DNA from: Candidatus Pacearchaeota archaeon | GTDB taxonomy: Archaea > Nanobdellota > Nanobdellia > Pacearchaeales > GW2011-AR1 | Reading direction: 5' to 3' | Assembly (NCBI GenBank): GCA_041649045.1 | Contig: JBAZNV010000003.1 | Coordinates: forward strand, 24,515 to 88,514 | Length of the DNA stretch: 64,000 nt | Part shown: positions 16,339 to 32,590 of the stretch, in pieces | How positions within the stretch are numbered: position 1 is the first letter of the stretch | Layout: each line of letters opens with the position of its first letter | Program-made: the position numbers and the translations under genes | Notes under the pieces: generated by a model | What the model saw: only the letters and a program-made list of their open reading frames with translations | Database searches by the model: none | What the model was told of the DNA's origin: nothing

Positions 16339-18023
16339 ATGGGGCAAAAAGAGGGAATAAAATTTGATCAGATGCGGGTTGCCTACTTTAGTATGGAAAT
16401 AGGGATTGACAGCAAAATGCCCACTTATTCTGGAGGACTTGGAGTTTTGGCAGGAGATTTGCTTAGAAGCGCTTCAGATATGAATATTCCAATAATTGGC
16501 GTGACCCTTCTTTACAAAAAAGGATACTTTAGACAAAAAATAAACGAAAACGGCTATCAAACAGAGCAGGATGAAAAATGGGAACCAGAGACTTTTTTAA
16601 AGAAATTACCAACTAAAATTAGTTTGAGAATCAAAGGGAAAGAGGTTTTTGTCTCTGCCTGGCTATATGAGCTTGAGGGCGTAACAGGAAATTTCAACCC
16701 GATTATTTTTTTGGATACTGATTTGCCAGAAAATTCTGAATATGATAGAACCATAACTCATCATTTGTATGGGAAAGACGACGAATATAGATTGTCCCAG
16801 GAAATAGTTCTTGGCATTGGTGGATTAAAAATTCTTGATAGCTTGGGATGTAGCATAGAAAAATATCATATGAACGAAGGTCACTCATCTCTCCTGTCCC
16901 TTGAGCTTTACAAAAAAGTGCCTGAAAACAAAACAGAGAACGTAAGAAAAAAATGCGTCTTTACTACGCACACACCAGTTCCAGCAGGACACGACCAATT
17001 TTCACGAGAGATGGCAGAAACACTATTAGGAGACTATCTGCCGGAAGAAATTAAAAAAGATTTGTTTTTTAATGACAAGCTTAATATGACTTATCTCGGG
17101 CTAAGATTTTCGGGTCATATAAATGGAGTCGCAAAAAAACACAAGGACGTTTCCAGGGCGATGTTCCCCGGATATAATATAGAATCAGTTACCAACGGAG
17201 TTCATTCCGTTTTTTGGACGTCACAATTTTTTAAAAAACTTTATGATAAATATATCCCGAATTGGAGAGAAGACCCATTTAATTTAAGATATATAATGGG
17301 AGTGCCCAAGGAAAAAATTTGGAACGCGCATCTTCTCGCAAAAGAAAAATTAGTAAGTTTTGTGAACAAAAATATAATCTCGATATGAGTGTTGATTCAT
17401 TCACGATAGGCTTCGCGAGAAGATCAACCAGCTACAAAAGAGGAGAACTTCTTTTGTCAGACATAGAAAAACTAAAAGGCATAGCCAAAAAATTTGAAGG
17501 AGGGATCCAGATTATTTATTCCGGCAAAGCACACCCAAGAGATACAGAAGGCAAAGAAATTATAAAAAGAATAATCGATAAAATAAAATTAATTAACGAA
17601 AAAATTAAAATTTGTTATATAGAAGATTATAATATTAGCGTGGCGAAAGTACTTGTTTCGGGAGTTGATGTTTGGCTGAACACTCCGCTTCGTCCCAAAG
17701 AAGCATCTGGTACCTCAGGGATGAAAGCTGCTCACAACGGCGTTCCTCATTTTTCAATATTAGATGGCTGGTGGCTTGAAGGGCATATAGAAAACATAAC
17801 CGGTTGGAGCATTGGCGCTCATCCTGAAAATTCTCCTGAAAATAATCAGGAAGAGGATATAGAGGATCTTTATGCAAAATTAGAGTATGTTATATTACCA
17901 ACATTTTATGAATCAAGAGACAAATGGATAGAAATTATGAGGCACACAATCGCCATCAACGCCTCTTTCTTTAACACTCATCGCATGCTCAATCAATATG
18001 TTTTGAATTCTTATTTTGAATAA
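16339..18023 (+). pseudogene. glgP: alpha-glucan (glycogen/maltodextrin) phosphorylase, GT35, split by a 1-nt frameshift
   Basis: Track ORFs 16339-17388 and 17319-18023 are the N- and C-terminal parts of one phosphorylase. The first carries AYFSMEIG..YSGGLGVLAGD. The second carries FTIGFARR..YKR and the PLP-lysine motif EASGTSGMKAAHNG. The frames overlap at 17319-17388. Adding one A to the A5 run at 17368-17372 gives a continuous ...LVSFVNKKYNLDMSVDSFTIGFARR. Confidence 0.85.
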
Positions 18024-18079
18024 TTTTGGACTTTCCAAAACCTATAAAAACCGCGAAACTCTTTTTCTGCGAGGTGAAT

Positions 18080-19090
18080 ATGAAAACAATTTTTTCAAGA
18101 GCTCCATCAAGAGTGGATTTTGCGGGAGGGACACTAGACTTACCTTTTTTTGCAGATGCCGAAAAAGGAGCAACCCTGAATTGTGCAATTTCAAAATATG
18201 GACACGTGACCCTATCTCCGAATGAAAAAGGGTTGGAAATTAATTCTATAAATTATAATAAAATAATAAAAGTTCCCTTCCCTGTAAAATACAATGGAGA
18301 TTTAGATCTAATCAAGGCAGCATTTAAATGCACAAACTTTAATCAAAAGGCGACACTCACAACTTATCACGAAATGTGTCCCCATTCAAGACTTGGCACA
18401 TCATCATCTATTTCCGTGGCTGTTCTCGGGGCGATTTATAGATATTTGGGTAAAAAAATTGACAGATATTTTATTTCAGATCTTGCGACAATGATGGAAA
18501 GACGGGAACTTGGAATGGATAACGGGCCGCAAGATCAATACGCAGCAGCATTGGGGGGAGTTCTTATGTTAAGATATAAAAAGGGCAGCAAAAAGACTTT
18601 CGTTGAACACGTGAAACTTAAAGAAGAAACAATTTTTGATTTAGAAAAAAACTTTGTACTTTGTTATCTTGATTCAGAAAAAGTCGCCGGGAACGTTAAT
18701 CATGAAACAGTAATGGGCTACAGCAACGGGAATGAACGGGTTGTAGACGCAATAAAAAACATAAAACAAATTACTTTCAGCATGTATAAGGCACTGAAAA
18801 AGTCAGATTTGCTCAATTTCTCTGAGCTAATTAACGAAGAAACTAAAAATCGTGAAAAATTAAACAAGTATATCGTGACTCCAAACTGCAAAAAATTTAT
18901 TAACATTGGTCTTAAAAACGGAGCAGCCTCAGCAAAAATTTTAGGAGCTGGCGCCGGAGGGACACTTCTTTTTTACGCTAAAGAGAATCAGCGAGAAAAA
19001 TTAATAAACACCCTTCGCAAAAACAACGGAGATGTTTTTGATTTTAGGTTTGACTTCAAGGGGCTGCAGACTTGGGGGAAAAACGAATAA
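18080..19090 (+). CDS. GHMP-family sugar kinase, HddA-like (COG2605)
   Basis: MKTIFSRAPSRVDFAGGTLDLPFF, SRLGTSSSISVA (motif 2) and ILGAGAGGTLLFYA (motif 3). Start at ATG 18080, preceded by GAGGTG; the track start is 18026. Confidence 0.8.
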   Translation: MKTIFSRAPSRVDFAGGTLDLPFFADAEKGATLNCAISKYGHVTLSPNEKGLEINSINYNKIIKVPFPVKYNGDLDLIKAAFKCTNFNQKATLTTYHEMCPHSRLGTSSSISVAVLGAIYRYLGKKIDRYFISDLATMMERRELGMDNGPQDQYAAALGGVLMLRYKKGSKKTFVEHVKLKEETIFDLEKNFVLCYLDSEKVAGNVNHETVMGYSNGNERVVDAIKNIKQITFSMYKALKKSDLLNFSELINEETKNREKLNKYIVTPNCKKFINIGLKNGAASAKILGAGAGGTLLFYAKENQREKLINTLRKNNGDVFDFRFDFKGLQTWGKNE

Positions 19091-19179
19091 AAAATAAAAT
19101 TATTGTAAAACATTAAATAAAAATAAAACCCTATAGATATCTGCAGACAACTTTCTTCTAAAATTATTTTATAATTTTC

Positions 19180-20862
19180 TTAATTGCCTATTTTCTCAAC
19201 TAATTCAATGAACATTGCAGCACTAAATGCCTGGCAAGCTGCACCCTCAGACTTTAAAGTTGATGCCGAACTTAACTCAGAATGATTGCCAATTGCACCA
19301 GAAAATAAAATTTCTTCAATACTTGCATCCAAAATTTTTTCTATATACTGACAATATTTTTTCTTATTTAAGTCCGACAACACCAGCCCCGCCAAATTAT
19401 TTATCCAAAACCAGCTATCTCCATTATGATAACTCCCTGCAATTTCCCCAGTATAATCTCTTTTGAAGAACTCGTCCTTTCTCGACAAACTTGAAAGCCC
19501 GCCCCAATCACACCATAATTCCACAAGTTCATTGTCGACAACCCTCTCCCATTCTTTCTTTGTCAAAAGTTCAGGATAAAAATAATAAACAATAAAAATA
19601 TTCGGCCTGATTCTTTTGTCGTCAGCATCATAAAGGAAATTTCCGTCAAAATATTTTTCTCTGACTTTTTGTTTGAATAGCTTTTCTTTTTCACTGTATA
19701 TATTTTTATTGTCCAGTTTACTCGCTAATTTAAAAATATATAATTTCATTGCCTGAACTTCAATTCCGTTTTTTCTGTAAATCGAATCCATCCAAGATTC
19801 ATTTCCTGTGTCAATAAATTCCAAATCTAAAAATGAAAAAAATCTCTTTATTTTTTCTCTGTTTTCATGTAATATTTCTGGGAAAATTTCAAGTCTTTTA
19901 AACATCCATCCGACACCATCAATTGACCTTCCGTCAAAACTGCCATCAATTTTTTCTTTTGAATTTATCGCAAATTCTCCCCCAATTAAATTAACCCACT
20001 TTTTCATTATTTTTTCAGAAAGTTTCTTATCAATTCCGTAAAACGCCTTGAGAGAAATCAATTCATCTCTTGCCCAGTATTGGAAAAACCACGGGAATCC
20101 TGCGAAAATTCCTTTCTTTGTGCCAAGTCCATCAAGCATGATTCTCGCAGAATTGTAAGCCATCCGCATTTTGCCTTTAAAAAAAGCATTGCTGTCTTTT
20201 TTAATTCGAGTCATTTTTTCTTTTTCGAATTCCTTTCTACGCCTAAAAATTTCCGCAGATTCTTTCATGGCGTTTTCTCGATCATTAGAAAATGAAAAAA
20301 CAATTTTTTTCGCACCTATTTTCCCCGGAGAATAAACATATCTTTCACAGGGATAAGAATTCCTCCCCTTGTCATAACTATAAAATCGGCAAAATGTTTT
20401 CTCATTTTTTTCAAATTTCCCTTCGAAATATGCAACAAGATAATAATTTTCCCCATGATAATTCATTTTTACAATTATCCCATTTTCAAATTCTTCAAAA
20501 AAATAATTTGCATAGTCGTTCGCATATGCTTCTCTAAAATCTAAAAAAAATTCCGTATCACTATTAGATTCATAAACCAAGCTATTCTTGAAATCAGGCA
20601 TCAAAACCTTTTCTCGTCCTTTCTCGCCATCCCCTCTCTCAACGCAAAAAAACTTATTTTCAATTTTATTAAATCCACTTTTCCCAAAAGATTCAATTAT
20701 CCTAAAAAACTTGCCATCGCAAGGCAAAAAAAATCCTTGATATCTGGAATTTATTTTATCTCCCATCCAAATATACCCGCCGTTTTTATTTGTCATCATA
20801 AAACTTGCATCTTCAGCATTTCCTTCGATTTTTTCCTTCCCCAAAGAATGGACTATTTTCAT
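19180..20862 (-). CDS. glycogen debranching enzyme (amylo-alpha-1,6-glucosidase, archaeal GDE type)
   Basis: 560 aa. GFPWFFQYWARDELISL and YHNGDSWFWINNLAGLVL are characteristic of the GDE_C (alpha/alpha)6 domain. Confidence 0.82.
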   Translation of the reverse strand: MKIVHSLGKEKIEGNAEDASFMMTNKNGGYIWMGDKINSRYQGFFLPCDGKFFRIIESFGKSGFNKIENKFFCVERGDGEKGREKVLMPDFKNSLVYESNSDTEFFLDFREAYANDYANYFFEEFENGIIVKMNYHGENYYLVAYFEGKFEKNEKTFCRFYSYDKGRNSYPCERYVYSPGKIGAKKIVFSFSNDRENAMKESAEIFRRRKEFEKEKMTRIKKDSNAFFKGKMRMAYNSARIMLDGLGTKKGIFAGFPWFFQYWARDELISLKAFYGIDKKLSEKIMKKWVNLIGGEFAINSKEKIDGSFDGRSIDGVGWMFKRLEIFPEILHENREKIKRFFSFLDLEFIDTGNESWMDSIYRKNGIEVQAMKLYIFKLASKLDNKNIYSEKEKLFKQKVREKYFDGNFLYDADDKRIRPNIFIVYYFYPELLTKKEWERVVDNELVELWCDWGGLSSLSRKDEFFKRDYTGEIAGSYHNGDSWFWINNLAGLVLSDLNKKKYCQYIEKILDASIEEILFSGAIGNHSELSSASTLKSEGAACQAFSAAMFIELVEKIGN

Positions 20863-21722
20863 AATAAAAATAAGGAAGCCGCTCCAAGTGCAGGCGCATG
20901 CCTCACTTTAGATATTTTTATTTCACACGGTTTAAAATAAACTCTTTTTTTGACCTCTTCTTTCGTCTTATCGAGAAATAAATCCGATGCATGCGAAATA
21001 CTCCCGAGAATTGTCACAATTTCAGGATCAGCCATCTTTATAATATCACTTATTCCAATTCCAAGATATACGCCAACTTTTTCATAAATTCCCCTTGCCT
21101 TTATATTCCCCTTTCTCGCAAGCTGTTCAATCTCAAAAGGAGAATCAGCCTTCAACTTTTCTTCTTTGGCGAATCTCATAATTCCTCTCCCTGCACAATA
21201 TTCTTCAAGACAACCAGTGTTCCCACAATTGCATTTTCGACCATAAGGCACAACACTCAAATGCCCAATTTCTGCCGCACATCCTCGTCCAATATACAAT
21301 TTGCCATCAGCAATCATCCCACCCCCAACGCCAGTTCCGACAGTAAGAGTAACAATATTTTTCTTCCCCTTCCCATACCCAAACAAATATTCTGCAACGG
21401 CCATGCAATTTCCATCGTTTTCCATTTTTATCGGGACTCGAAATTCTTTCCAAATTCTTTTACCAATATTAAAATTTTTTATATGCATATTCGGCATATC
21501 CAAAACAATTCCCTTTTTTCTGTCGACACATCCCGGGAACCCCATCCCAATTCCATGAATTTTTCTCCCTTCAGAAAGCTTCTTTATCATTAATATAAGT
21601 TGTTTAGTCATTCCCTTCTTCGTCTTTTGCGTGGGTTCCTTTATTTGCTCAACTATTTTATTTTTGTTGTCTAAAAGAAGCCCGTCAATCTTCGTTGCAC
21701 CCACATCAATCCCTATTAACAT
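20859..21722 (-). CDS. ROK-family glucokinase
   Basis: MLIGIDVGATKI (ATPase N-terminus), ENDGNCMAVAE, and the ROK zinc motif GHLSV...KCNCGNTGCLEEYCAG. Confidence 0.85.
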   Translation of the reverse strand: MLIGIDVGATKIDGLLLDNKNKIVEQIKEPTQKTKKGMTKQLILMIKKLSEGRKIHGIGMGFPGCVDRKKGIVLDMPNMHIKNFNIGKRIWKEFRVPIKMENDGNCMAVAEYLFGYGKGKKNIVTLTVGTGVGGGMIADGKLYIGRGCAAEIGHLSVVPYGRKCNCGNTGCLEEYCAGRGIMRFAKEEKLKADSPFEIEQLARKGNIKARGIYEKVGVYLGIGISDIIKMADPEIVTILGSISHASDLFLDKTKEEVKKRVYFKPCEIKISKVRHAPALGAASLFLL

Positions 21723-21811
21723 TCATCACCTCAAACCTAATCACACAACTTTCTTTAAATAGTTTTTCAAAATTAAATTAAACTTATAAACTTCTCTTTC
21801 TTCCAAAAATC

Positions 21812-22249
21812 ATGGGAGAGGATGATAAGATTGTTTTAAATATTCTTAATGAAATTCAGGACAAACATGGCTATATCTCAGAAAACTTATTAAAACAAAC
21901 AAGTGAACAATTGAATATCCCTATTGCACGCCTTTGGGGGGTCGTCAATTTTCATACAATGCTCAGAACAAAAAAACAAGGAAAATATATAATCGAACTT
22001 TGCGGTTCGCCTTCATGCGTTCTGAGTGAAAGTCGCGAAATAGAAAATTTTTTGAAGAAAGAACTTAATATTGACATTGGTGAAACGACTACTGACGGAT
22101 TATTTTCCGTTTACAAGACTTCTTGTATCGGTTGCTGTAACGAAGCCCCGGCGATGCTTCTAAACAACGAACCTTACACTAATCTGACAACCGACATTGT
22201 AAAAAAAATAATCGAGGAAAAAAGAAATGCAAATTCTAAGAGAAACTAA
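21812..22249 (+). CDS. hydC: NuoE-like [2Fe-2S] subunit of a [FeFe]-hydrogenase complex (HydC-like)
   Basis: 145 aa. Thioredoxin-like 2Fe-2S pattern CGSPSC ... CIGCC (C-x4-C ... C-x3-C). Confidence 0.85.
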   Translation: MGEDDKIVLNILNEIQDKHGYISENLLKQTSEQLNIPIARLWGVVNFHTMLRTKKQGKYIIELCGSPSCVLSESREIENFLKKELNIDIGETTTDGLFSVYKTSCIGCCNEAPAMLLNNEPYTNLTTDIVKKIIEEKRNANSKRN

Positions 22250-23345
22250 ACTTGAATCTTTGAAAAAAGCAAAAGAAATTGGGAGAGAATCTGCCCTGCA
22301 AATTTTGGAAAAAAAAGGTTTAGTTGGCAGAGGAGGGGCGGCATTTCCGACAGCGAAAAAATGGAGAATGGCCTTGAATGTGAAATCAAAAACACGATAT
22401 CTCATCTGTAACGCAGATGAAGGAGAACCTGGGACTTTCAAAGACAGATTTATTTTAAAAAACAATCCGGAAACATTTATCGAAGGAATTCTCGTTGCTG
22501 CTTTCATTCTCGATGTGAAAAAATGTTTTATTTATTTAAGAGGGGAATATAATTTTTTAAGAAAAGATTTGGAGGAAAAAATTTCTGAGCTTCTAAAAAA
22601 ATCAAAAATGAAAATAAAAATTGATATTGTTAGGGGGTCTGGAGCTTATATATGTGGTGAAGAAACAGCCATAATCCAGTCTATCATGGGATTCAGAGGA
22701 AATGCTATGCAAAAACCACCATACCCAACAATAAAAGGCCTTTGGGGGAAGCCGACAGTGATAAACAACGTCGAGACCTTAACGTGCGTGGCACAGGCAT
22801 TATTTTACAACGATTGGAATCCTAATATCAGATTGTTTTCTATTTCGGGTGACGTTGAACATCCCGGCCTCTATGAATGGGAACTGGGGGTCAAAATTTC
22901 GACAATTCTCGACACAGTTAAACCAGAAAACGGGAAGGTCAAGGCGATGTCTTTTGGATGTTTTGGCGGAATAATGCCCGTCAAAAAAACTGAGGCAATC
23001 AGCTCCGAATCCATCTGTAAAAACAATTGCCATCACGGAGCATTTACTATTATTTTTATTGGCGAAGACAAAAATATTTTAGATATGTGTTTGAGTATCT
23101 CCAAATTTTATACTTACGAATCTTGCGGCAAATGTACGCCTTGTCGCGAAGGAACAATTAGAATACTTAACCTTCTGAAAAAAATCAGGGACAAAAGGGC
23201 AATAAAAGAAGACCTGAATTTTCTTAAAGATTTGGCGAATCACATTCAGGAAACCAGTTTGTGCGGTCTCGGCCAATCCTGTGGTAATCATGTTTTAACA
23301 GCGATGAACTTTTTCAGGGAGGATTTTGAAAAATTTTTAAAATGA
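22227..23345 (+). CDS. hydB: NuoF-like FMN/NAD(H)-binding subunit (HydB-like, core only)
   Basis: 372 aa. GLVGRGGAAFPTAKKW (FMN site), CNADEGEPGTFKDR (NADH site), ESCGKCTPCREG ... SLCGLGQS (N3-type 4Fe-4S). No N- or C-terminal ferredoxin-like extensions. Confidence 0.87.
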   Translation: MQILRETKLESLKKAKEIGRESALQILEKKGLVGRGGAAFPTAKKWRMALNVKSKTRYLICNADEGEPGTFKDRFILKNNPETFIEGILVAAFILDVKKCFIYLRGEYNFLRKDLEEKISELLKKSKMKIKIDIVRGSGAYICGEETAIIQSIMGFRGNAMQKPPYPTIKGLWGKPTVINNVETLTCVAQALFYNDWNPNIRLFSISGDVEHPGLYEWELGVKISTILDTVKPENGKVKAMSFGCFGGIMPVKKTEAISSESICKNNCHHGAFTIIFIGEDKNILDMCLSISKFYTYESCGKCTPCREGTIRILNLLKKIRDKRAIKEDLNFLKDLANHIQETSLCGLGQSCGNHVLTAMNFFREDFEKFLK

Positions 23346-25009
23346 AAATAACATTAAACAACAAACAAATAGAAGCTCCGGAAAGAAAAACGATTTTGCA
23401 GATTTGCGAATTAAACGGGATAAAAATTCCAACTCTTTGTTATCATAAAAATCTTTTTCCCGAAGCAAGATGTCGAATTTGTTTAGTTGAAATGAACGGG
23501 AAATTAGTAACCGCATGTTCAACAATTCCATCGGAAAATTGCAAGATTTTAACAAATACTTCCAGGGTGATAAAAGCAAGGAAAGCAAACTTGCAGCTGA
23601 TGAACCCCCAGATTAATCCTAATAAATTAACCGACGATTTTGAAGCGAAAGAAATTTATGAACAAGTTGGTCTCGATTACGAGGAATTTAGTCCGATAAA
23701 AAATTACAAACCGGATTTAGGCTCAGCAATTATAAGAGATAACAACAAATGCATAAATTGTGGTAAATGCGTTCAGGTATGCAGTAAAATTCAGGAAATT
23801 TATGCAATCGATTTTTCAAGCCGTGCGCATAACGAACACGTGACTCCATATTGTGAAAAAAATCTGGCAGACGTTGCATGTATAAAATGCGGGCAGTGTC
23901 TGATTAACTGCCCCGTCGGAGCAATTTCCGAGCGTTCACATCTTGAAGAAGTTGAAAAAGCCTTGAAGGATAAAACAAAACATGTCGTCGCGCAAACAGC
24001 TCCGTCAATTAGAGCAGCACTTGGGGAACTTTTCCAGATGGAACCCGGAAGTTTGGTAACTGGGAAAATGATTGCCGCACTAAGAAAATGTGGTTTCGCA
24101 AAAGTTTTCGACGTGGATCTCGGAGCCGATATGACAATTATGGAAGAATCTGCGGAATTTTTACGAAGACTAAAAAATAAAGAAACTTTCCCAATGATAA
24201 CGACTTGTTGCCCTGGTTGGATTTTAATGATGGAATATTTTTACCACGATCTTTTCCCTAATATGTCGACCTGCAAAAGCCCGCACGAAATGTCGGGAAT
24301 GCTAATAAAATCATTCTATGCCGAAAAGGCAAACATCGATCCAAAAAAAATCGTTGTCGTCAGCATAATGCCTTGTACCGCAAAAAAATTTGAATCCACG
24401 CGCAAAGAACTTAATACCGGAGTCGATTATGTTTTAACTACAAGAGAACTCGGACGGCTAATAAAGAAAAAAAATATCGACTTTATTAATTTAAAAAACG
24501 AAGAGTTTGATCCCACTCTGGGAATTTCATCCGGCGCAGGAGATATTTTTGGGACTGCTGGAGGAGTAATGGAAGCCGCATTAAGAACTGTATACGAAAC
24601 AGCAACTGGGAAAAAGTTAAGTAAATTAGAAATCAGGCCCCTAAGAAAAAATAAAGGAATAAAAGAAGGTAAAATAGTAATTAACGGGGAAACAATAAGA
24701 TACGCGGCAGCCAGCGGCGGAGCAAATATCAGAAAACTTCTCAAGAATAAAGACAAATACCATTTTATAGAAATGATGGCATGCCCAGGAGGATGCGTCG
24801 GTGGTGGCGGTCAGCCAATATATTTTGATTCAGATGTTTTAAAAAAAAGAGGCGAAGCCTTGTATAAACAAGACTCGATGAAAAAATTTAGAAGAAGCCA
24901 TGAAAACCCGATAGTCAAAGAAATCTATAAAGAATATTTGGGAAAGCCATTGAGTAAAAAAGCAGAAGAGCTTTTGCATACGAATTATAAAAAAAGAAGT
25001 AAATTCTAA
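23342..25009 (+). CDS. hydA: [FeFe]-hydrogenase catalytic subunit
   Basis: 555 aa. N-terminal 2Fe-2S (C-x10-C-x2-C-x11-C), two 4Fe-4S motifs (CINCGKCVQVC, CIKCGQCLINCP). All three H-cluster signatures are present: TTCCPGW (24200-24220), MPCTAKKFE (24368-24394) and EMMACPGGCVGGGGQP (24770-24817). ATGA overlap with hydB. Confidence 0.92.
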   Translation: MKITLNNKQIEAPERKTILQICELNGIKIPTLCYHKNLFPEARCRICLVEMNGKLVTACSTIPSENCKILTNTSRVIKARKANLQLMNPQINPNKLTDDFEAKEIYEQVGLDYEEFSPIKNYKPDLGSAIIRDNNKCINCGKCVQVCSKIQEIYAIDFSSRAHNEHVTPYCEKNLADVACIKCGQCLINCPVGAISERSHLEEVEKALKDKTKHVVAQTAPSIRAALGELFQMEPGSLVTGKMIAALRKCGFAKVFDVDLGADMTIMEESAEFLRRLKNKETFPMITTCCPGWILMMEYFYHDLFPNMSTCKSPHEMSGMLIKSFYAEKANIDPKKIVVVSIMPCTAKKFESTRKELNTGVDYVLTTRELGRLIKKKNIDFINLKNEEFDPTLGISSGAGDIFGTAGGVMEAALRTVYETATGKKLSKLEIRPLRKNKGIKEGKIVINGETIRYAAASGGANIRKLLKNKDKYHFIEMMACPGGCVGGGGQPIYFDSDVLKKRGEALYKQDSMKKFRRSHENPIVKEIYKEYLGKPLSKKAEELLHTNYKKRSKF

Positions 25010-25632
25010 TTCATTATTTTATTTAGTGCTTTATCAGGATTTTTCGTGGTTGCAATTGCCGAAGATACGGCAATCCCCGACGCTCCGAGCTCCATTGCTA
25101 TTTGAACATCTTTAGCCGAATGAATTCCTGCACCAACCAAAAATTCTCTTCCGATTTCTTTTCTTATTTTCTTTATCACTTCAGGCTTCGCCTTTGAAAC
25201 CGAAATTTTTGTACCAACAAATTCTGGCGGTTCATAAACCAAATAATCTGGATTTAATTTTTTTTCATCTTTTGCTTCACGAAGATTTGAAGCAAAAATC
25301 AAAACCTTAAGTCCAATTTCTCGGCACCTTTTTACAGTTTTTTTCAACTCTTCAAAATTTATTTTATGCTCGGAATGATTAAGAAAAACACCAATTGCTC
25401 CATTGGCCTTTACTGCCTCAGGTAAAATAAACCCCGTCGCCTTTCCCCTTTCTTCACAATCAACATGTTGGGCAAAAACCATTAATTTCGTTTTACTGCT
25501 AACTGCAAAAATATCAGCGGCGCTTACCCCGACAATTATTTTTTTATCGAATTTCTCAATTTTTTTCGCAAGTTCTACAGCACTTTTTCCTTCAACATAA
25601 GTTTTAAAATTTACAACAATTATCGGTTTCAT
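25006..25632 (-). CDS. tpiA: triosephosphate isomerase (short archaeal type)
   Basis: 208 aa. VVNFKTY, LNHSEH, YEPPEFVGT and VGAGI match archaeal TIM. The stop (TAG) overlaps the hydA stop convergently. Confidence 0.85.
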   Translation of the reverse strand: MKPIIVVNFKTYVEGKSAVELAKKIEKFDKKIIVGVSAADIFAVSSKTKLMVFAQHVDCEERGKATGFILPEAVKANGAIGVFLNHSEHKINFEELKKTVKRCREIGLKVLIFASNLREAKDEKKLNPDYLVYEPPEFVGTKISVSKAKPEVIKKIRKEIGREFLVGAGIHSAKDVQIAMELGASGIAVSSAIATTKNPDKALNKIMN

Positions 25633-26405
25633 TTCCAGATTACTTTTTTTATTTGATTGGATATATTAATTGGATCAGAATCTTGCCAAACATTCCTCCC
25701 GACTGCAAGTCCGGTCGCACCAACGTCAATAATCTCCTTTGTCTGACCAAGAAATTCTTTCCTATCTTTTTTTGCCCCACCCGCAATCACAACTCTTGCC
25801 CTTCCCGCAGCCCTAACTGCTCTTGCCAAATCATCCTTATTCCCGCAATACCGAATTTTTATAATATCAGCTCCTATTTCAAGTCCAACCCTGCAAGCAT
25901 AAATCATTAAATCAGGATTATTCTCGTTTCTTACATCTTTTCCTCTGGGATAAATCCATGCGACAACAGCGAGTCCTTTTTTGTGAGCCTCTTCTTGTAT
26001 CTTCTCAAATTCAGACAGCATATCGCTTTCATTTCTCGAGCCAATATATATTGTATATCCAACTCCCTTAGCCCCAAGCATTATTGCTTCTTCAACACTG
26101 CAAAGTTGACGCGACATTGGTTCCCCTTTGTACAAAGAGGTCTTCCCATTTAATTTAACAATCAGCGGCACACCCGCTTTTTTTATTTCCTTGTTATATT
26201 TTTCTGCAATCCCTTTCTGAAAAATCACGGCATTATATTTCCCTTTCTTCGCAATATCAATTATAAACAGCGGATCAATATTTTTATCATTAAAATCACT
26301 TGGCCCATGTTCAAGTCCCTGGTCGTAAGCAAGCATCATCGTCTTGCCCTTTTTGAAAAACAGATTTAAATTTTTCGGACCTCTCTCCATCTTTTTTAAA
26401 TACAC
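25629..26405 (-). CDS. class I fructose-bisphosphate aldolase, archaeal DhnA/FbaB type (COG1830)
   Basis: 258 aa. MLAYDQGLEHGP, VKLNGKT, GADIIKIRY (Schiff-base Lys region) and GLAVGRNVWQ. Confidence 0.8.
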   Translation of the reverse strand: MYLKKMERGPKNLNLFFKKGKTMMLAYDQGLEHGPSDFNDKNIDPLFIIDIAKKGKYNAVIFQKGIAEKYNKEIKKAGVPLIVKLNGKTSLYKGEPMSRQLCSVEEAIMLGAKGVGYTIYIGSRNESDMLSEFEKIQEEAHKKGLAVVAWIYPRGKDVRNENNPDLMIYACRVGLEIGADIIKIRYCGNKDDLARAVRAAGRARVVIAGGAKKDRKEFLGQTKEIIDVGATGLAVGRNVWQDSDPINISNQIKKVIWK

Positions 26406-26420
26406 AAGAAGATTATAAAT

Positions 26421-27344
26421 TTATCTTATATTAACACTTTCAATCTTGCACGAATTTTTCTCAATCGATTTTTTTGCTTCTTCCCATGTTAATATTTTAT
26501 TAGTAGAACCCTTATACTTGATGACCGATTCCGAATTGGCAACACCGATTCTGATCGACTTTTCAATATCATTTGTTTTTATATATGCTCCAACAAAACC
26601 GGAAGCGAATGCATCACCTGCGCCAGTTCTTTCCACAGGCTTAACGTCTTTATTCGGGTATATTTTATATCTTACGCTTTTTGTATAACAATAAAAAGGG
26701 TTTTTACCGTCGGTTACAATCACAATTTTTGGCCCCATTTCGATAATCTGGCTATTTATTTTATCAAGACGGTCTGCCTCCTCTTTATTTAAAATGATTA
26801 TATCACATCTTTTTACAATTTTTTTCACATTAACTTTGTCGAACAAATACAGGCTCGGATTGTACGCAATTTTATATTTTCCAGATTCCGCAATTTTTAG
26901 CTGACTTTTGAAACTCTCTCCGTTCATTGCAGAAAAATAAAACCATTCGCTGTTAAAATTTATATTTTTTACTTTAAATTTATCATTCCCTCCCTTAAAG
27001 GTTAATATTGTACGGTCATGTTCTTTGCTGTCAAGAACTACAGAATATCCAGCACTACCCCTTCTTTCTCCCATAAATTCCACTTTTTCTTTTTTTATTT
27101 TGTCCAAAATTTTTTGCGACAAGCCCCCTTCCCCGATATCCCCCAAAAACCCAGTTTTAAAGCCAAATCTCGAAAACGTTGTTGATGTATTTACTCCACC
27201 ACCCCCGACGTCAAAATCCATTTCGTTTATCTGTATCTTGCTTCCGATTGGATAAGACAACTGCTTTTTCTTTTCATGAACATCAGTATAAACAAATATA
27301 TCAATTAGTCCCGACCCAAAACATATCACATCAAATTTTTTCAT
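26421..27344 (-). CDS. PfkB-family carbohydrate kinase (candidate 6-phosphofructokinase or other sugar kinase)
   Basis: 307 aa. N-terminal GGGGVN di-Gly region and C-terminal TGAGDAFASGFVGAY (PfkB signature 2). Assigning it to PFK rests on operon context only. Confidence 0.8.
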   Translation of the reverse strand: MKKFDVICFGSGLIDIFVYTDVHEKKKQLSYPIGSKIQINEMDFDVGGGGVNTSTTFSRFGFKTGFLGDIGEGGLSQKILDKIKKEKVEFMGERRGSAGYSVVLDSKEHDRTILTFKGGNDKFKVKNINFNSEWFYFSAMNGESFKSQLKIAESGKYKIAYNPSLYLFDKVNVKKIVKRCDIIILNKEEADRLDKINSQIIEMGPKIVIVTDGKNPFYCYTKSVRYKIYPNKDVKPVERTGAGDAFASGFVGAYIKTNDIEKSIRIGVANSESVIKYKGSTNKILTWEEAKKSIEKNSCKIESVNIR

Positions 27345-28480
27345 TTTAAAACCTCTAACCCCGGAAGTTTTTCTCCTGCAACATAATTAGCCAAAGCACC
27401 ACCAGAAAGCGAAATATAATCGAATTTATTTTTATTTATTTTAGATTGTTTTATTGCAGTGGTTAAATGTCCTCCGCCGATAATCGAGAATGCCCCGCTG
27501 TTGCCGACTGCCCTTAAAATTTCAATCGTACCTTTTCTAAACTGTTTTTCTTCAACGAATCCCAAAGGACCTTTCATAAAAATTGCCTTGGCTTTTTTAA
27601 TTTCTTCCTTAAATAATTTTATTGTGTCGAATCCGATATCAAAAATCTCATAGCCATTTGGAAAATTCTCCGTAGAGATTTCTTTTCTCTTCCCCGACTT
27701 TTTTATTGCAAAATCAATTGGTAAAATTGGATAAATTTTTTTCAATTTATTTTTTAAGGCTTTAACAGATGTCGTATCTAAAAGCTTTTCATGTTTCCCA
27801 AATTTAAATCCTGAAGCAAGCATGCACAATTGTCCAAATTTGCCTCCCGCGATTATTTTTTTATTCCTTTGCAAAAAAAGCATATTTTCTTCAGCCTTTG
27901 AACCTCCGAGAATATAAAGAACATTTTTCATTTTAATTTTTTCGAGGGAGATGAGTTCTTTCTCCATATTCGGACCGATGCAGCTTTTCATTTTTTTCGG
28001 AAAGCATGTCACCGAGGCCTGTTCCCGATGACTGACAGAAAAGGCATCGTTTACATAAATATCAGCAAGCGAAGAAAGTATTTTTACATAATTAGAATTT
28101 ATTTCATTATTTTTTTCATCATCGAGAAAGCGCACATTATCCAGAAGCAATGCCTCACCCGGGTTCAGAGACCTAATTTTTTTTTGCGCCCTTTCCCCAT
28201 AAATATCATCGACAAAATCAATGCTTGTATACTTTTTTAATAATTTGGCATGTTGTTTTAAATTCGTAAAATCTTTATCTCCCTTTCTCCCCTGATGTGC
28301 AAGAACCACAACCTTCGCATTTAGTTTTTTCAATGAAAGAATAGATTTTGCAGATTGCCTAATCCTTTCGTTATTAATTATTCTTCCTTTCACGACAGGA
28401 GAATTTAAATCAACTCGAAGCAAGACGGTTTTCCCAGAAAAATTATAATTTTTCAAAGTTTTAAACATCACCATGCTCAT
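27341..28480 (-). CDS. pgk: phosphoglycerate kinase
   Basis: 379 aa. KTVLLRVDLNSPV, VVVLAHQGRKG and the C-terminal ISLSGGALANYVAGEKLPGLEVL. Confidence 0.88.
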   Translation of the reverse strand: MSMVMFKTLKNYNFSGKTVLLRVDLNSPVVKGRIINNERIRQSAKSILSLKKLNAKVVVLAHQGRKGDKDFTNLKQHAKLLKKYTSIDFVDDIYGERAQKKIRSLNPGEALLLDNVRFLDDEKNNEINSNYVKILSSLADIYVNDAFSVSHREQASVTCFPKKMKSCIGPNMEKELISLEKIKMKNVLYILGGSKAEENMLFLQRNKKIIAGGKFGQLCMLASGFKFGKHEKLLDTTSVKALKNKLKKIYPILPIDFAIKKSGKRKEISTENFPNGYEIFDIGFDTIKLFKEEIKKAKAIFMKGPLGFVEEKQFRKGTIEILRAVGNSGAFSIIGGGHLTTAIKQSKINKNKFDYISLSGGALANYVAGEKLPGLEVLK

Positions 28481-28512
28481 TATTATATGTATTTCTTTAT
28501 AAAGATTTAGAG

Positions 28513-29514
28513 CTAAAAACGATTTGTGTTTTTTATAATTTTTACAGCATCCACCAGCCTACAGGAATATCCCCACTCATTATCATACCATCCGACAACA
28601 TTTACCATATTGCCGATTACTTTTGTCATCAAAGAATCAAAAACGCATGAAGATGGATTGTGGATAATGTCCGTCGACACAATAGGATCGGAGCAATATT
28701 CTAATATCCCCCTCATCCCTTTCGCTGAAATCCTTTCAAATGCCTCATTAACCTCTTCCGCCGTGACCTTTTTATTCACAATGCATGTAAAATTACATAT
28801 GGAGCCATCGGCAACAGGAACCCTTAGTGCATAGCCATCAAGTTTTCCTTTTAGTTCTGGAATAATTTCTCCGACCATTTTTGCGGCGCCTGTCGAAGTC
28901 GGAACGATATTTATCGAGGCAGTTCTTCCCCTTCTGAAATCTTTGTGAGGAGAGTCCACAATTTTTTGGTCTGCCGTTATCGCATGTGTAGTAACCATAT
29001 AACCTCTCTCGATAGAAAAATTATCATTTATAACTTTGACAATCGGAGCAATGCAATTAGACGTGCACGAAGCCATCGAAATAATATTATGTTCCTTTTT
29101 TAAGTTTTCAGAATTTACTCCCGGGACAATAAAACAATCAGAATTTTTGCCAGGCGCCGTCAATAAAACTTTTTTCGCACCGGCATTTAAATGCATCTCA
29201 CACCCTTCTCTATCTGTAAAAACACCAGTGGACTCCACGACTAAATCAATTTTTAATTTTTTCCATGGGTACTTTGACGTGTCTTTTTCGTTTAAGAAAA
29301 GAATCTTTCTTCCGTTTATTATTAATGAATCTTTTGTAAAATTAATTCTATCTTTTCTTTTCCCGTGAATAGAGTCATATTTCAGCAAGTATGCCAAATT
29401 TTCGGAATCGGCCAAATCATTAATCGCCACAATATCTTTCAATATATTTGCTTCCAGGGCAGCTAAAAAAAACTGTCTTCCAATTCTTCCAAAACCATTT
29501 ATGGCGATTCTCAT
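28513..29514 (-). CDS. gap: type I (bacterial/eukaryotic-type) glyceraldehyde-3-phosphate dehydrogenase
   Basis: MRIAINGFGRIGR, active-site SCTSNCIAPIVKV and WYDNEWGYS are hallmarks of class I GAPDH, not the archaeal class II enzyme. Confidence 0.92.
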   Translation of the reverse strand: MRIAINGFGRIGRQFFLAALEANILKDIVAINDLADSENLAYLLKYDSIHGKRKDRINFTKDSLIINGRKILFLNEKDTSKYPWKKLKIDLVVESTGVFTDREGCEMHLNAGAKKVLLTAPGKNSDCFIVPGVNSENLKKEHNIISMASCTSNCIAPIVKVINDNFSIERGYMVTTHAITADQKIVDSPHKDFRRGRTASINIVPTSTGAAKMVGEIIPELKGKLDGYALRVPVADGSICNFTCIVNKKVTAEEVNEAFERISAKGMRGILEYCSDPIVSTDIIHNPSSCVFDSLMTKVIGNMVNVVGWYDNEWGYSCRLVDAVKIIKNTNRF

Positions 29515-31199
29515 AAATTATCCTCCTTCTTTTTAATTGCAAGACGGTAAGCCTTTAAATAGTTTTCAATTAAATACTTCCATGAGAATTTTTTCCCGAA
29601 ATTTTCGGCCATTATTTTATTTTTCATTTTTTCCAATTTTTTTAAGTTCAAATATTCGTGCATCTCGTCTCGAAGTTGATCAACAATCTCATCATCATTT
29701 TTATTTTTTCTATTGGCTATGATAATCCCGGTTTCTTTCTTCCCATCGATAAAATCGCCAAACCCCGATAAATCACTTGCAATGGCAGGAACCCCCAGCG
29801 ATATGCTCTCAAGAGGAGTATACCCCCATGGTTCATAAAAAGAAGGAAAAATTCCAAGATCAAAACCCTTTGTAAATTCATAATAATCAAGGTTCAAAAG
29901 CCCATCTCCTTCCTCCAGATATGCAGGATAATAAATTACTTTCACTTTGTCATCCTCTCTATTCCCCAAACCATTCTCTGCTAAAAACTTCATGATAGCA
30001 TCATCATGAATAAGTTCATGTGTCGCAAGTGGGGGATGTCCCCTTTTTTTAAAAACCCGTATGCTCCTGCTTACTTCATCAGAAAGGCTCATGTCGCTTT
30101 CCTTTTTGAACAAAACATAATTAATGATTTTTTTTCTAAGCAATCTGAAATTATCCGATATTTTTTCATTTATTCTTGAAAAAAGCAAGAAGTTTTTGAT
30201 AACGTCATCATTCACTCTTTTTGTGGCGGCAGGAATTAAGATGAAGGCTATGATATTTTTTTTGCTACCCTCCTCCTTTAATTTTTTATTCAATCTCCCA
30301 AGGGATTTTACGAAAACATCAATACCTTTTGACAAAATTTCGTATCTTCCGGAAATAAAATAAAAATCAGTATTTTTTATTTCCAAATAATAATAAGGAT
30401 AAAAGTAAGACTTTACAAAAAACTCTATTTTTTTTCTGCTTTTTGAAAAATCATATTTTCTTATATCAATCCCATTATAAACCAAAACCTCCGGTTTCCT
30501 GCCAAAAATTTTTTCAGCAGATTCAGAAATTAAATTGCTTACAGTAGTAAAAACATCACAATTTAATGCACTTTCTCTTTCTAACGAGTGCTTGTCGATA
30601 ATTCCTCTTTTGCTTGCCTCGTCTTCCGGATTGCCAGAAACATAAATTTTTTTTTCAGAAGCCATTGCCCTTTCAAGTACAGTTGCGTGCGTCGTGAAAA
30701 CTGTTGCGACATTGGAATTGAATTTTTTCAAATATAAAATCCCGGCGCCAGAAAGCCACTCATGAAATTGAGCAACTATTTTATCTCTTGTTTTTGAAAA
30801 TTCCCCAAGAAACATCCCGACGGCCCATGCCCATACCACAGGTTCATCAAATTCAAACCCGGACCTTATAGAATCTACTTTGAAATATTCCCATAAAACA
30901 GTTTTGATGTAATTTTTTTCTCGCATTAATTCTTTAAAGTCAATCAAGATAGCATAGGAGTCAATACTCCCCCATCTCCCATAATGAATTTTGATTTTTT
31001 TCTCCGTCAAACTTTCAAAAATTTTCCTAAACTCTTCTGGCGGCTCTTCTTCCGAAAAATCTTTATTATTAAAATACGGCCCTATGAAAAAATAATTTTT
31101 ACATATCTTCTTGGCATATTTAGACTTTGAACTAATGACCGTGTAAATTCCGCCGACTTTGTTGCATACTTCCCACGAAATTTCAAATAAATAATTCAT
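29511..31199 (-). CDS. GT3-family (eukaryote-type) glycogen synthase
   Basis: 562 aa. The N-terminal LFEISWEVCNKVGGIYTVISSKS closely matches the animal/fungal glycogen synthase N-terminus (FE..WEVANKVGGIYTV). Also HEWLSGAG and PSFYEPWGYTPLES. Confidence 0.85.
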   Translation of the reverse strand: MNYLFEISWEVCNKVGGIYTVISSKSKYAKKICKNYFFIGPYFNNKDFSEEEPPEEFRKIFESLTEKKIKIHYGRWGSIDSYAILIDFKELMREKNYIKTVLWEYFKVDSIRSGFEFDEPVVWAWAVGMFLGEFSKTRDKIVAQFHEWLSGAGILYLKKFNSNVATVFTTHATVLERAMASEKKIYVSGNPEDEASKRGIIDKHSLERESALNCDVFTTVSNLISESAEKIFGRKPEVLVYNGIDIRKYDFSKSRKKIEFFVKSYFYPYYYLEIKNTDFYFISGRYEILSKGIDVFVKSLGRLNKKLKEEGSKKNIIAFILIPAATKRVNDDVIKNFLLFSRINEKISDNFRLLRKKIINYVLFKKESDMSLSDEVSRSIRVFKKRGHPPLATHELIHDDAIMKFLAENGLGNREDDKVKVIYYPAYLEEGDGLLNLDYYEFTKGFDLGIFPSFYEPWGYTPLESISLGVPAIASDLSGFGDFIDGKKETGIIIANRKNKNDDEIVDQLRDEMHEYLNLKKLEKMKNKIMAENFGKKFSWKYLIENYLKAYRLAIKKKEDNL

Positions 31200-31948
31200 T
31201 TCCCAGGTTCCCCTGCGTCATCCATTAATTCTGAAGTTTCATCTTTGGTTAAATTATTATCTACAAGGTATTCTGCGAGTTTCAGATATCTTTTGGAATT
31301 TTTATTTCTTGGAAAAGAATGGGTTACGGGCATGAATTTAGAAAAGGACTTCATTATTTTATTGTTGTCTCTTATCTCAGCTATTACAGGCAATCTCGTA
31401 GCATTTTCGATATCTTTTCTGCTTAATTCATGTCTCTTTTTTTTGTACTTGTTGAGCAGGACCCCGCCTACAGCGATGTTTTTACTTCTCATGAATTCGG
31501 CGGATCTTAATGTGGTTACAAGAGTAGGGTAATCAGGGGTCGTTATAAAAATTACTTCATCAACCGCGGCCAGAATAGCAAAAATTTCACGCGTGTAACT
31601 TGGCCCCGAATCCAAGATAATAAAATCATATTTCTTTTTTAACTCGTCTATTTTTGTTTTAAAAATTTTGCAATCCATGTCTCTGCAAAAATTACACGGC
31701 ATAATATGTATTCCTGTTTCATGTTCATAAATTGCATCTTCAGGGAGCATATCGTATTTTATTATTTCTCTTAGGGTCACATCTGGGTCCAATAGTCCGA
31801 GATAAATATGAAGCGTAGGCGATAAAAAGTTCACATCTACAACTAATACCTTCTCTCCTCTCTTAGACAACGCAGCAGCAATATTTATTGCAGATATTGT
31901 TTTACCAACACCACCTTTGAACGAAACAATTCCTATTACTTTTCCCAT
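31196..31948 (-). CDS. MinD/ParA-family P-loop ATPase
   Basis: 250 aa. Deviant Walker A SFKGGVGKT with the signature Lys, and Walker B DFIILDSGP. The C-terminus is acidic (DETSELMDDAGEPGK) rather than an amphipathic membrane-targeting helix. 4-nt overlap with the GT3 synthase start. Confidence 0.85.
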   Translation of the reverse strand: MGKVIGIVSFKGGVGKTISAINIAAALSKRGEKVLVVDVNFLSPTLHIYLGLLDPDVTLREIIKYDMLPEDAIYEHETGIHIMPCNFCRDMDCKIFKTKIDELKKKYDFIILDSGPSYTREIFAILAAVDEVIFITTPDYPTLVTTLRSAEFMRSKNIAVGGVLLNKYKKKRHELSRKDIENATRLPVIAEIRDNNKIMKSFSKFMPVTHSFPRNKNSKRYLKLAEYLVDNNLTKDETSELMDDAGEPGK

Positions 31949-31950
31949 GA

Positions 31951-32310
31951 CTATGAATTTTTCAAAAGATTAAGGATGTTCGACTTTTTTTTGGGAAATT
32001 TTATTCGCTTCATTTTGTCAGAAAAATCTTCCTGTTTTTCAGTCTTTCTCCTTTCTCTTTCAAGATGAATCCTAATTGCCCTTGTCATTTTTTTCCTATC
32101 CATGCCCCTTATTGCTTTTGCCAAATTCTCATTTCCATAAACATCCTTTATCCAATTACTGAAATCATTTTTTTCAGCATTAACATGATGATCAAATATC
32201 CACGAGTCAACCATATCCAAAATTTCTGCCAACTCTCTCAAGCTTTTCACAACTCTCCCATCCGCTAAATAGAAATAAAATTCTGGACTTACTTCTTGAT
32301 TTATATCCAT
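31951..32310 (-). CDS. small conserved-looking protein with basic C-terminal tail, function unknown
   Basis: 119 aa. N-terminal ~60 aa domain (EFYFYLADGRVVKSL.EL...DHHVNAEKNDFSNWI), then a Lys/Arg-rich tail (RERRKTEKQ...KRIKFPKKKS). Ends 2 nt before the MinD/ParA start. A paralogue lies immediately upstream. Confidence 0.6.
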   Translation of the reverse strand: MDINQEVSPEFYFYLADGRVVKSLRELAEILDMVDSWIFDHHVNAEKNDFSNWIKDVYGNENLAKAIRGMDRKKMTRAIRIHLERERRKTEKQEDFSDKMKRIKFPKKKSNILNLLKNS

Positions 32311-32320
32311 TTTATCACCT
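32243..32320. repeat. 78-bp perfect direct repeat, copy 1
   Basis: CTTTTCACAACTCTCCCATCCGCTAAATAGAAATAAAATTCTGGACTTACTTCTTGATTTATATCCATTTTATCACCT is identical to 32450-32527. It covers the first ~22 codons plus 10 nt of leader of the small ORF. Confidence 0.95.
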
Positions 32321-32334
32321 CCTTTTTTAATTTC

Positions 32335-32517: not shown

Positions 32518-32527
32518 TTTATCACCT
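32450..32527. repeat. 78-bp perfect direct repeat, copy 2
   Basis: Identical to 32243-32320, with a period of 207 bp. Confidence 0.95.
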
Positions 32528-32590
32528 TATTTCATAGAGGCAATCTTATTTATAAATCTGATGTCTTTAACATCTATCAATAAGATTCCG

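Follow-up and report, generated by a model that had tools for sequence, protein, structure and literature searches.

Trimeric [FeFe]-hydrogenases encoded with nuoE- and nuoF-like genes were described in Woesearchaeota by Huang et al. 2021 (PMC8421398), who called them group A3 and bifurcation-capable. Greening et al. 2024 (PMC11216029) recorded A3 HydABC from six or more DPANN phyla and predicted that these enzymes 'simultaneously reoxidize ferredoxin and NADH' (NADH, reduced nicotinamide adenine dinucleotide), and a 2024 study of Woesearchaeota (PMC11606122) repeated the A3 assignment and found hydA to be transcribed in situ. The hydCBA locus considered here occupies positions 21812-25009 of a 64,000-nucleotide stretch (hereafter the window) of contig JBAZNV010000003.1, from the assembly GCA_041649045.1 of a Candidatus Pacearchaeota archaeon, and is a member of that already published DPANN 'group A3' clade. 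An initial annotation of the window had held archaeal [FeFe]-hydrogenases to be rare, a view that cannot be kept, since this clade occurs widely across DPANN archaea and earlier papers have described it (PMC8421398, PMC11216029). What appears to be new is that the clade fails all the published requirements for electron bifurcation, contrary to its annotation, and that it has additionally lost the so-called Y-junction cluster.

Several protein features that separate bifurcating from non-bifurcating enzymes have been reported. According to Losey et al. 2020 (PMC7311640), a bifurcating HydB has extra iron-sulfur domains, A or E at position 232 of the Thermotoga maritima protein (TmHydB), M at 234, F at the flavin mononucleotide (FMN) site and GGPSG at 427-431, whereas a non-bifurcating HydB has T or S at 232, K, S or A at 234, and Y, and is without GGPSG. 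The C-terminal clusters of HydB are present in all characterised bifurcating enzymes and not in non-bifurcating ones (PMC9499530; PMC9304861); Schut et al. 2022 (PMC9304861) found the clusters there called B2-B5 to be absent from all non-bifurcating homologues, and Furlan et al. 2022 (PMC9499530) described a Cys3His Zn site as HydB-specific. In the T. maritima HydABC structure a direct chain, FMN-B2-A3-A2-A1-H, leads from NADH to the active site. The His-ligated cluster A4 lies off this main chain, at the HydA-HydA interface, as part of a conserved 'Y-junction' whose 'significance is unknown' (PMC9499530).

Three + strand open reading frames (ORFs) make up the locus, and the initial annotation described them well, its coordinates being exact and Pfam agreeing with its account of the translationally coupled genes. 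The first, hydC (21812-22249), encodes a NuoE-like thioredoxin-fold [2Fe-2S] subunit of 145 amino acids (aa; PF01257, 3.2e-39), with C64, C69, C105 and C109 as ligands of cluster C1; hydB (22227-23345), which overlaps it by 23 nt, encodes a bare NuoF core of 372 aa with an FMN/NADH site and one [4Fe-4S] cluster; and hydA (23342-25009), overlapping hydB by 4 nt (ATGA), encodes the catalytic [FeFe]-hydrogenase subunit of 555 aa. All the motifs that had been quoted are present, at HydB residues 34, 61, 298 and 344 and HydA residues 84, 287, 343 and 477. On the features set out below, the product of hydCBA is a heterotrimer, a group A [FeFe]-hydrogenase that is native to its Pacearchaeota-like DPANN host, and it quite probably acts as a non-bifurcating, reversible NADH:H+ oxidoreductase releasing H2. 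The suggestion that the enzyme is possibly non-bifurcating and NADH-linked had been made in the initial annotation, and it agrees with the published sequence criteria (PMC7311640, PMC9499530, PMC9304861).

The HydB of the window contains solely the Pfam domains Complex1_51K (1.8e-40) and NADH_4Fe-4S (1e-27), and C300, C303, C306 and C346 are the ligands of its [4Fe-4S] cluster. Its best match among solved structures is Aquifex NuoF (264 bits), and the bifurcating HydBs of T. maritima, Acetobacterium woodii and Thermoanaerobacter kivui match it at 222-234 bits. At the positions singled out by Losey et al. it has T70, K72 and Y141, and FGCFGG takes the place of GGPSG. The N- and C-terminal iron-sulfur extensions, already reported missing, are absent down to the last residue: the N-terminal extension, corresponding to the B1 [2Fe-2S] domain, amounts to 0 residues as against at least 111 in long HydBs, and the protein ends at the NADH_4Fe-4S domain, 0 residues past the core and without the B3/B4 domain, where long HydBs continue for about 70 additional residues with eight conserved Cys. 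The columns of the Zn site read C, H, C, C in every long HydB; in the window protein the first two hold N and F and the last two are absent, the first two being N/S/D and Y/K/L in other short HydBs. Judged by its protein features (B1, B3/B4, the Zn site, A/M/F and GGPSG), the window HydB fails every published bifurcation criterion, and the enzyme would presumably be unable to bifurcate or confurcate.

The same division runs through the relatives. The hydC, hydB and hydA genes were extracted from 80 loci and the HydBs were aligned. Short HydBs (n = 38; 360-411 aa) comprise that of the window, 33 from the main DPANN clade, three from Aenigmatarchaeota and one from a bacterium; they have T (one S), K and Y, an FGCFGG-like stretch at the GGPSG site and N- and C-terminal extensions that are essentially nil, and the four Cys of the NuoF-type [4Fe-4S] cluster are present in all 38. 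Long HydBs (n = 37) comprise 36 clostridial proteins and one, L023b, from a Nanoarchaeota metagenome-assembled genome (MAG), and have A, M, F and GGP[SA]G, with a C-terminal extension of about 70 aa in every case; the 36 complete ones measure 574-656 aa, of which the N-terminal extension takes up 111 aa or more, and one ends at a contig edge. By the four criteria of Losey et al., 38 of 38 short HydBs are non-bifurcating and 37 of 37 long HydBs are bifurcating.

These data bear directly on whether the locus might after all encode a genuine electron-bifurcating (confurcating) group A3 HydABC that co-oxidises NADH and reduced ferredoxin to H2, as the published assignments have it (PMC8421398, PMC11216029, PMC11606122). 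The hydC-hydB-hydA architecture, which is the genetic-organisation criterion for A3 in HydDB and the one the literature itself relied upon, is present, and it is the sole A3 criterion for which this can be said; the closest solved HydA is that of a bifurcating enzyme, T. kivui HydA1 (530 bits), and a true long HydB does occur in some DPANN archaea (L023b). All the specific elements tested, namely the B1, B3 and B4 domains, the Zn site, A/M/F and GGPSG, are nevertheless missing, the His-ligated cluster that forms the route to the ferredoxin site in the Clostridium pasteurianum hydrogenase CpI is also lost, and neither a ferredoxin nor a pyruvate:ferredoxin oxidoreductase (PFOR) gene is found among the called genes of the window, in which the ferredoxin-type motif CxxCxxCxxxCP has its only occurrence inside HydA. 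Bifurcation is considered improbable on this evidence, and the non-bifurcating assignment is retained.

HydA is complete and, as had been proposed, appears to be catalytically competent. Pfam finds Fer2_4, a 2x[4Fe-4S] domain, Fe_hyd_lg_C (PF02906, 3e-92) and Fe_hyd_SSU (5.8e-24), and the TIGR02512 model '[FeFe] hydrogenase, group A' gives 482.6 against a cut-off of 405.95. The N-terminal [2Fe-2S] domain (A3 in the nomenclature of Furlan et al., FS2 of CpI; 23342-23560, + strand; PF13510, 1.2e-13) has C33, C44, C47 and C59 as ligands, and the ferredoxin-like domain with two [4Fe-4S] clusters (A2 and A1; 23729-23941, + strand; Fer4 family matches) has C137/140/143/147 and C180/183/186/190. The H-cluster domain, with a fused small-subunit-like tail (23978-24997, + strand), carries P1 as TTCCPGW (residue 287), P2 as MPCTAKKFE (343) and P3 as EMMACPGGCVGGGGQP (477), to be read against the group A consensus TSCCPxW, MPCxxKxxE and ExMACxxGCxxGGGQP, which includes the four cluster Cys and the Lys; an H-cluster domain with P1-P3 is what defines a group A catalytic subunit. 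The ligands of B2, A3, A2, A1, the H-cluster and C1 are all present in the window and are invariant in 52 DPANN homologues at 63-76% identity, so that no displacement of the H-cluster Cys or Lys, which would have spoken against a competent enzyme, is seen.

The cluster that HydA lacks is A4. Between residues 68 and 136 there is neither Cys nor His, and alignment to the T. kivui and A. woodii HydAs shows the H-x3-C-x2-C-x5-C ligands replaced by non-ligating residues, which bears out the earlier claim that the His/Cys3 ligands are missing; a degenerate remnant of the His-ligated [4Fe-4S] domain (A4/FS4C; 23564-23716, + strand), with all four ligands lost, is what remains. The description of the enzyme as 'trimmed' stands for the ligands and the HydB domains that are gone and not for this HydA segment, which has not been deleted and has roughly kept its length. 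The subunit is likewise not of the CpI-like M3 type, the [2Fe-2S] and 2x[4Fe-4S] sites being present and the His(Cys)3 set wholly absent. An AlphaFold2 model of HydA has a mean predicted local distance difference test score (pLDDT) of 80.6 and full-length template-modelling (TM) scores of 0.88 to both T. kivui HydA1 and CpI; the part of the ligand-less segment from residue 89 to 118 is modelled with low confidence (pLDDT about 46-58).

Among the relatives, H, C, C and C are found in every HydA paired with a long HydB and in none paired with a short one, HydB shortening and loss of the A4 ligands coinciding without exception in the 75 operons assessable for both subunits. None of 116 full-length HydAs of the clade has the full ligand set: 52 have kept nothing at these positions, as in the window, 51 retain a single Cys there and have another Cys at some other point of the segment, and 13 retain a His and one Cys, 11 of these having a second His. 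The decay, located at about HydA residues 88-110 in an alignment covering P0001-P0120 and L003-L036, is graded by taxon, with H-x3-C...(H)..C in Woesearchaeota-labelled, C...C in Micrarchaeota-labelled and no ligand in Pacearchaeota-type proteins, that of the window included. The text of Huang et al. 2021 and that of Greening et al. 2024, the latter taken apart from its Tables S1-S3 (domain maps and maturases), do not report a loss of the His-ligated cluster, and a literature search found no paper linking DPANN or Woesearchaeota hydrogenases with 'non-bifurcating'.

One further line of support was considered and rejected. The NF040763 model 'NADH-dependent [FeFe] hydrogenase, group A6' might seem to favour a non-bifurcating enzyme; it is best matched, at 900-920 bits, by clostridial HydAs paired with bifurcating-type HydBs, and the window HydA scores 716 bits, below the cut-off of 765. 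Most DPANN HydAs tested fall just under that cut-off (716-756), and one (L029) passes with 770.

Taken together, the cofactor sites in the window comprise NADH/FMN and one [4Fe-4S] in HydB, [2Fe-2S], two [4Fe-4S] and the H-cluster in HydA, and [2Fe-2S] in HydC; this last is the only off-chain site present, the N-terminal [2Fe-2S], the C-terminal [4Fe-4S] pair and the Zn hinge of HydB and the A4 cluster of HydA all being absent. In the proposed mechanism NADH would give a hydride to the HydB FMN, from which single electrons would pass through the HydB [4Fe-4S] cluster to the HydA [2Fe-2S] cluster, the two HydA [4Fe-4S] clusters and the H-cluster, there to reduce protons; a second input for ferredoxin and an electronic link between protomers would both be lacking. 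The NADH, presumably supplied by the neighbouring glyceraldehyde-3-phosphate dehydrogenase (GAPDH), would be re-oxidised in this way during glycogen or sugar fermentation, with release of H2, and the H-cluster would be matured without linked HydE, HydF and HydG, as has been proposed for most archaeal [FeFe]-hydrogenases.

Several points weigh against this reading and have to be set beside it. Three publications (PMC8421398, PMC11216029, PMC11606122) place the clade in the bifurcating group A3, and the function proposed here is a prediction from sequence. The criteria of Losey et al. themselves derive from two characterised non-bifurcating enzymes and homology; T/K/Y is, moreover, the ancestral NuoF state, as the neighbour-joining (NJ) grouping and the near-equal identities given below indicate, so that what is seen is no positive signature, just the absence of bifurcation-specific changes. 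Other parts of the genome could hold genes for PFOR, ferredoxin or additional subunits, and no maturase of the organism was found in the window or in the 68 kb of contig covered. NADH, as against its phosphorylated form NADPH, is a predicted donor. Finally, NADH-driven H2 formation is exergonic solely at about 1-40 Pa H2 and otherwise endergonic; NADH-to-H2 turnover would run only at very low H2, with the organism relying on others to remove the gas, an arrangement consistent with symbiotic or syntrophic life in DPANN archaea.

The same non-bifurcating chemistry might also be run mainly as uptake, the enzyme serving as an H2-dependent NAD+ reductase that draws reductant from environmental or host H2. 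At normal H2 pressure thermodynamics favours this direction, and the characterised non-bifurcating enzymes are reported to be reversible (PMC7311640). The operon, however, is surrounded by genes of glycogen breakdown and of NADH-yielding glycolysis, the window shows no obvious route for consuming NADH by respiration or CO2 fixation, and the DPANN relatives are modelled as fermenters in the literature; H2 uptake is thus an unlikely main role, and H2 release remains the preferred direction.

It could also be asked whether the enzyme is matured at all, or whether it has been recruited to a non-hydrogenase role for lack of HydE, HydF and HydG. The initial annotation had noted that no hydE, hydF or hydG gene occurs in the 64 kb, and both the called genes and a motif scan confirm this, the only radical-SAM CX3CX2C motif in the ORFs of the window being that of a 52-aa antisense ORF inside the phosphoglycerate kinase (PGK) gene. 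The observation is true of the window; it is not new, being general in [FeFe]-hydrogenase-encoding archaea, of which just five of 130 genomes have a full maturase set (Greening et al. 2024, PMC11216029). Against non-maturation, the H-cluster ligands and P1-P3 residues are invariant in the 52 sequences mentioned above, and selection on catalysis may therefore be assumed; maturase-free archaea and eukaryotes with active enzyme are cited in PMC11216029, where semisynthetically matured archaeal [FeFe]-hydrogenases of other groups were also active. An unmatured or repurposed protein is very improbable in the light of these data, and an active hydrogenase continues to be favoured.

The nativeness of the locus was examined through its assembly. 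HydA and HydC are also encoded on a 92.6-kb ENA contig and on an independently built 18.3-kb Logan contig (together L001 and L002), which are mutually identical, span both hydrogenase borders and, over 21.7 kb and 18.3 kb respectively, differ from the window at one base, at about 17368, outside the operon. The GC content at third codon positions (GC3) of the hyd genes, 0.33-0.35, lies inside the range of their neighbours, and the tetranucleotide distance of the hyd region from the whole window ranks 26 of 76 equal-sized windows. The top identities to relatives are similar for HydA (76%) and RpoD (74%), the nearest named RpoD relatives being Nanoarchaeota and Pacearchaeota MAGs, and the window has the archaeal hallmark genes for ribosomal L21e, RpoF, RpoD, RpoN and STT3/AglB. 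A chimeric join or recent transfer at hydCBA is very unlikely, because the assemblies match, the composition is normal and the HydA and RpoD identities are alike; both were accordingly discarded. As to a bacterial fragment mis-joined to an archaeal contig in particular, no supporting point was found; outside the archaea the closest HydAs come from Clostridia (44-49% identity), and the two spanning assemblies, the typical composition and the recurrence of the same operon and neighbours in many DPANN MAGs and in a 919-kb chromosome make it scarcely credible.

The clade is large. More than 100 HydA clusters (at 90% identity) are relatives, at 62-76% identity and 553-572 aa, those with names being labelled Pacearchaeota, Woesearchaeota, Nanoarchaeota or Micrarchaeota, and among 1.84 billion representatives at 50% identity the clade forms a single one (828 bits), the next match falling to 552 bits. 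GTDB species genomes contain 35 loci of the clade, including the 919-kb Woesearchaeota chromosome (CP070803), and the same operon is found in at least 33 GTDB species; the other loci retrieved are three from Aenigmatarchaeota, at 48-50% HydA identity, and the rest from Clostridia, at 44-49%. A ROK kinase and triosephosphate isomerase (TIM), with or without aldolase and PfkB, adjoin the operon in 10 of the 35 DPANN loci, and PGK or GAPDH lies near it in additional ones; no clostridial locus has core glycolysis neighbours. The archaeal flanks and the glycolysis/glycogen neighbourhood described earlier are confirmed in the window, and the glycolysis linkage recurs in relatives.

Trees were built by NJ with 100-200 bootstraps and few bacterial non-bifurcating references, and are to be taken as indicative. 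The short HydBs of DPANN archaea, Aenigmatarchaeota and one bacterium (L058) form one clade with 100% support; Slip_0124, the Syntrophothermus orthologue of Syntrophomonas wolfei Hyd1B, groups with bifurcating HydBs (98%), and Dehalococcoides HymB falls outside. The window HydB is roughly equidistant from Aquifex NuoF (40% identity), Slip_0124 (37%) and clostridial HydB (36%). From the grouping and these near-equal identities the archaeal short HydB would be an independent lineage outside the bacterial non-bifurcating clade, within the indicative reach of the trees; an origin of short HydB within the S. wolfei-type clade was considered and is not supported by them. Support for the main DPANN clade reaches 100% in the HydA tree, and the ligand-deficient HydAs, except P0165 and the P0135/P0159 pair, lie on one side with weak support.

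Two further loci were noted. A Nanoarchaeota MAG (L023; JAHJBD010000173.1, 558-7813) has two hydCBA operons in tandem, the first of bifurcating type (HydB of 574 aa with A/M/F/GGPAG and both extensions; HydA with intact His-Cys3) and the second of short type (HydB of 372 aa with T/K/Y; HydA with a mere relic H..C..H), and because both occur in this MAG the two types can coexist in DPANN archaea. The second locus (L058; CAZAOE010000003.1, 8288-11737) encodes a HydB of 360 aa with T/K/Y and a HydA of 583 aa without His-Cys3 ligands, on a contig that carries a bacterial RF1/RF2-type release factor and ComEC and is labelled 'uncultured Gammaproteobacteria'. As this contig is bacterial, the reduced hydrogenase type is not strictly archaeal, which suggests transfer between DPANN archaea and small-genome bacteria.

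Upstream of the operon, the 89-bp divergent intergenic region between the ROK kinase gene and hydC (21723-21811, + strand) is a putative promoter, containing TTTAAATA at about 21755 and TTATAAA about 25 nt 5' of the hydC ATG. Both TTTAAATA and TTATAAA appear TATA-like, resembling archaeal TATA boxes, and the latter, if so used, would give a leaderless or short-leader hydCBA transcript. Beyond it lies a block (16339-21722) identified by Pfam as glycogen phosphorylase, a GHMP kinase, amylo-1,6-glucosidase (GDE) and ROK glucokinase. The glycogen phosphorylase is split by a frameshift into ORFs at 16339-17388 and 17319-18023; at the site, about 17368, the window has A5 in CAAAAAT, and L001 and L002 have A6 with an intact 561-aa gene, a difference that probably reflects either strain variation or a miscounted homopolymer. 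Downstream, the hydA stop TAA (25007-25009) and the tpiA stop (25006-25008; CTA on the + strand) overlap convergently within 25006-25009, as the initial annotation had seen, and tpiA opens a glycolysis block on the - strand (25006-29514; Pfam) that continues with a class-I fructose-bisphosphate aldolase of the DeoC/LacD family, a PfkB sugar kinase, pgk and gap. It is followed, also on the - strand, by genes of glycogen synthesis and processing (29511-34968; Pfam), namely glycogen synthase, a ParA-like ATPase, GH57 and a GT5 glycogen-synthase-like gene; the ParA/MinD-like ATPase, together with a faint DUF5752 protein and a 60-aa ORF in this block, is unusual for a sugar-metabolism cluster.

Further from the operon, a 5S rRNA gene and three tRNA genes (9814-9925, 10631-10706, 10788-10869 and 12186-12256) lie between a ribosomal-protein/RNA polymerase block and the SecDF genes, and a glycosylation/cell-surface region contains ORFs of 218-414 aa without a Pfam match (35908-37152, 40092-40886, 41074-41736 and 46380-47153). 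Outside the window, before its first position, the contig encodes a serine recombinase together with a phage-type (tyrosine) integrase just beyond ribosomal L13/S9 (L083, 18668-20420), a pair that may mark the border of a mobile element.

Extended to its relatives, the proposal is that the whole DPANN 'A3' clade, with the sister Aenigmatarchaeota group, consists of minimal linear-wire NADH:H+ oxidoreductases that have shed their off-pathway clusters, the Y-junction stepwise, and are matured without HydEFG; on balance this seems likely. Genomes labelled Pacearchaeota, Woesearchaeota or Micrarchaeota have in this clade a dominant H2 enzyme, and metabolic reconstructions of DPANN archaea now assume confurcation of NADH and ferredoxin at HydABC; if the enzyme is NADH-only, their redox balance and energy yield change, and so does the extent to which they depend on hosts or neighbours that scavenge H2. 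The symbionts would then vent glycolytic NADH as H2 only while a partner holds the gas at pascal levels, which would make H2 transfer obligatory to the symbiosis, and the clade would amount to a series of natural knock-outs in which the function of the Y-junction cluster could be studied. A naturally minimal, cluster-poor HydABC should help to work out what bifurcation requires and to engineer small H2 catalysts driven by NADH, as should the graded loss of a His-ligated cluster whose role PMC9499530 describes as unknown. A caution for annotation also follows, in that neither 'A3 = hydA next to nuoE/nuoF' nor the NCBIfam label 'A6, NADH-dependent' can separate bifurcating from non-bifurcating enzymes.

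Compared with known systems, the locus shares gene order, subunit sizes, taxa and the lack of maturases with the DPANN 'group A3' clade (PMC8421398, PMC11216029), with no structural difference; the difference lies in interpretation, these papers calling the enzymes electron-bifurcating and the features tested here saying otherwise. With the non-bifurcating enzymes of the S. wolfei Hyd1ABC type it has in common a HydB with FMN/NADH and one [4Fe-4S], T/K/Y and no GGPSG, a HydC with one [2Fe-2S], and the same predicted reaction, ferredoxin-independent formation of H2 from NADH at low H2 pressure. The window HydB, however, falls outside the clade of these enzymes in the NJ trees, its identity is 37% and its host is archaeal; and because the bacterial non-bifurcating HydAs keep three [4Fe-4S] clusters (Losey Table S7, PMC7311640) where the window HydA has two, the DPANN enzyme is further reduced. 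The bifurcating HydABC/BfuABC complexes (T. maritima 7P5H, T. kivui 8A6T, A. woodii 7Q4V) have homologous subunits and an identical FMN-B2-A3-A2-A1-H chain, the window HydA being 46% identical to T. kivui HydA1 with a TM score of 0.88, but they possess B1, B3, B4, the Zn site, A/M/F, GGPSG and the HydA A4 cluster, all of which the window enzyme lacks. CpI, the monomeric M3 enzyme, shares the HydA fold (TM score 0.88, 40% identity) and the H-cluster motifs, and differs in being ferredoxin-dependent, without HydBC partners, and in retaining the His-ligated FS4C. Another likeness is found in eukaryotes, where the hydrogenosomal Hyd with NuoE/NuoF of the anaerobic fungus Caecomyces churrovis (PMC13556243) and the fusion protein of Nyctotherus ovalis also join an [FeFe]-hydrogenase to plain NuoEF for NADH-dependent, ferredoxin-independent H2 formation, the NuoF having non-bifurcating features (PMC13556243); the fungal system is nevertheless of independent origin, its NuoF clustering with mitochondrial complex I and its subunits being eukaryotic, organellar and separately encoded.

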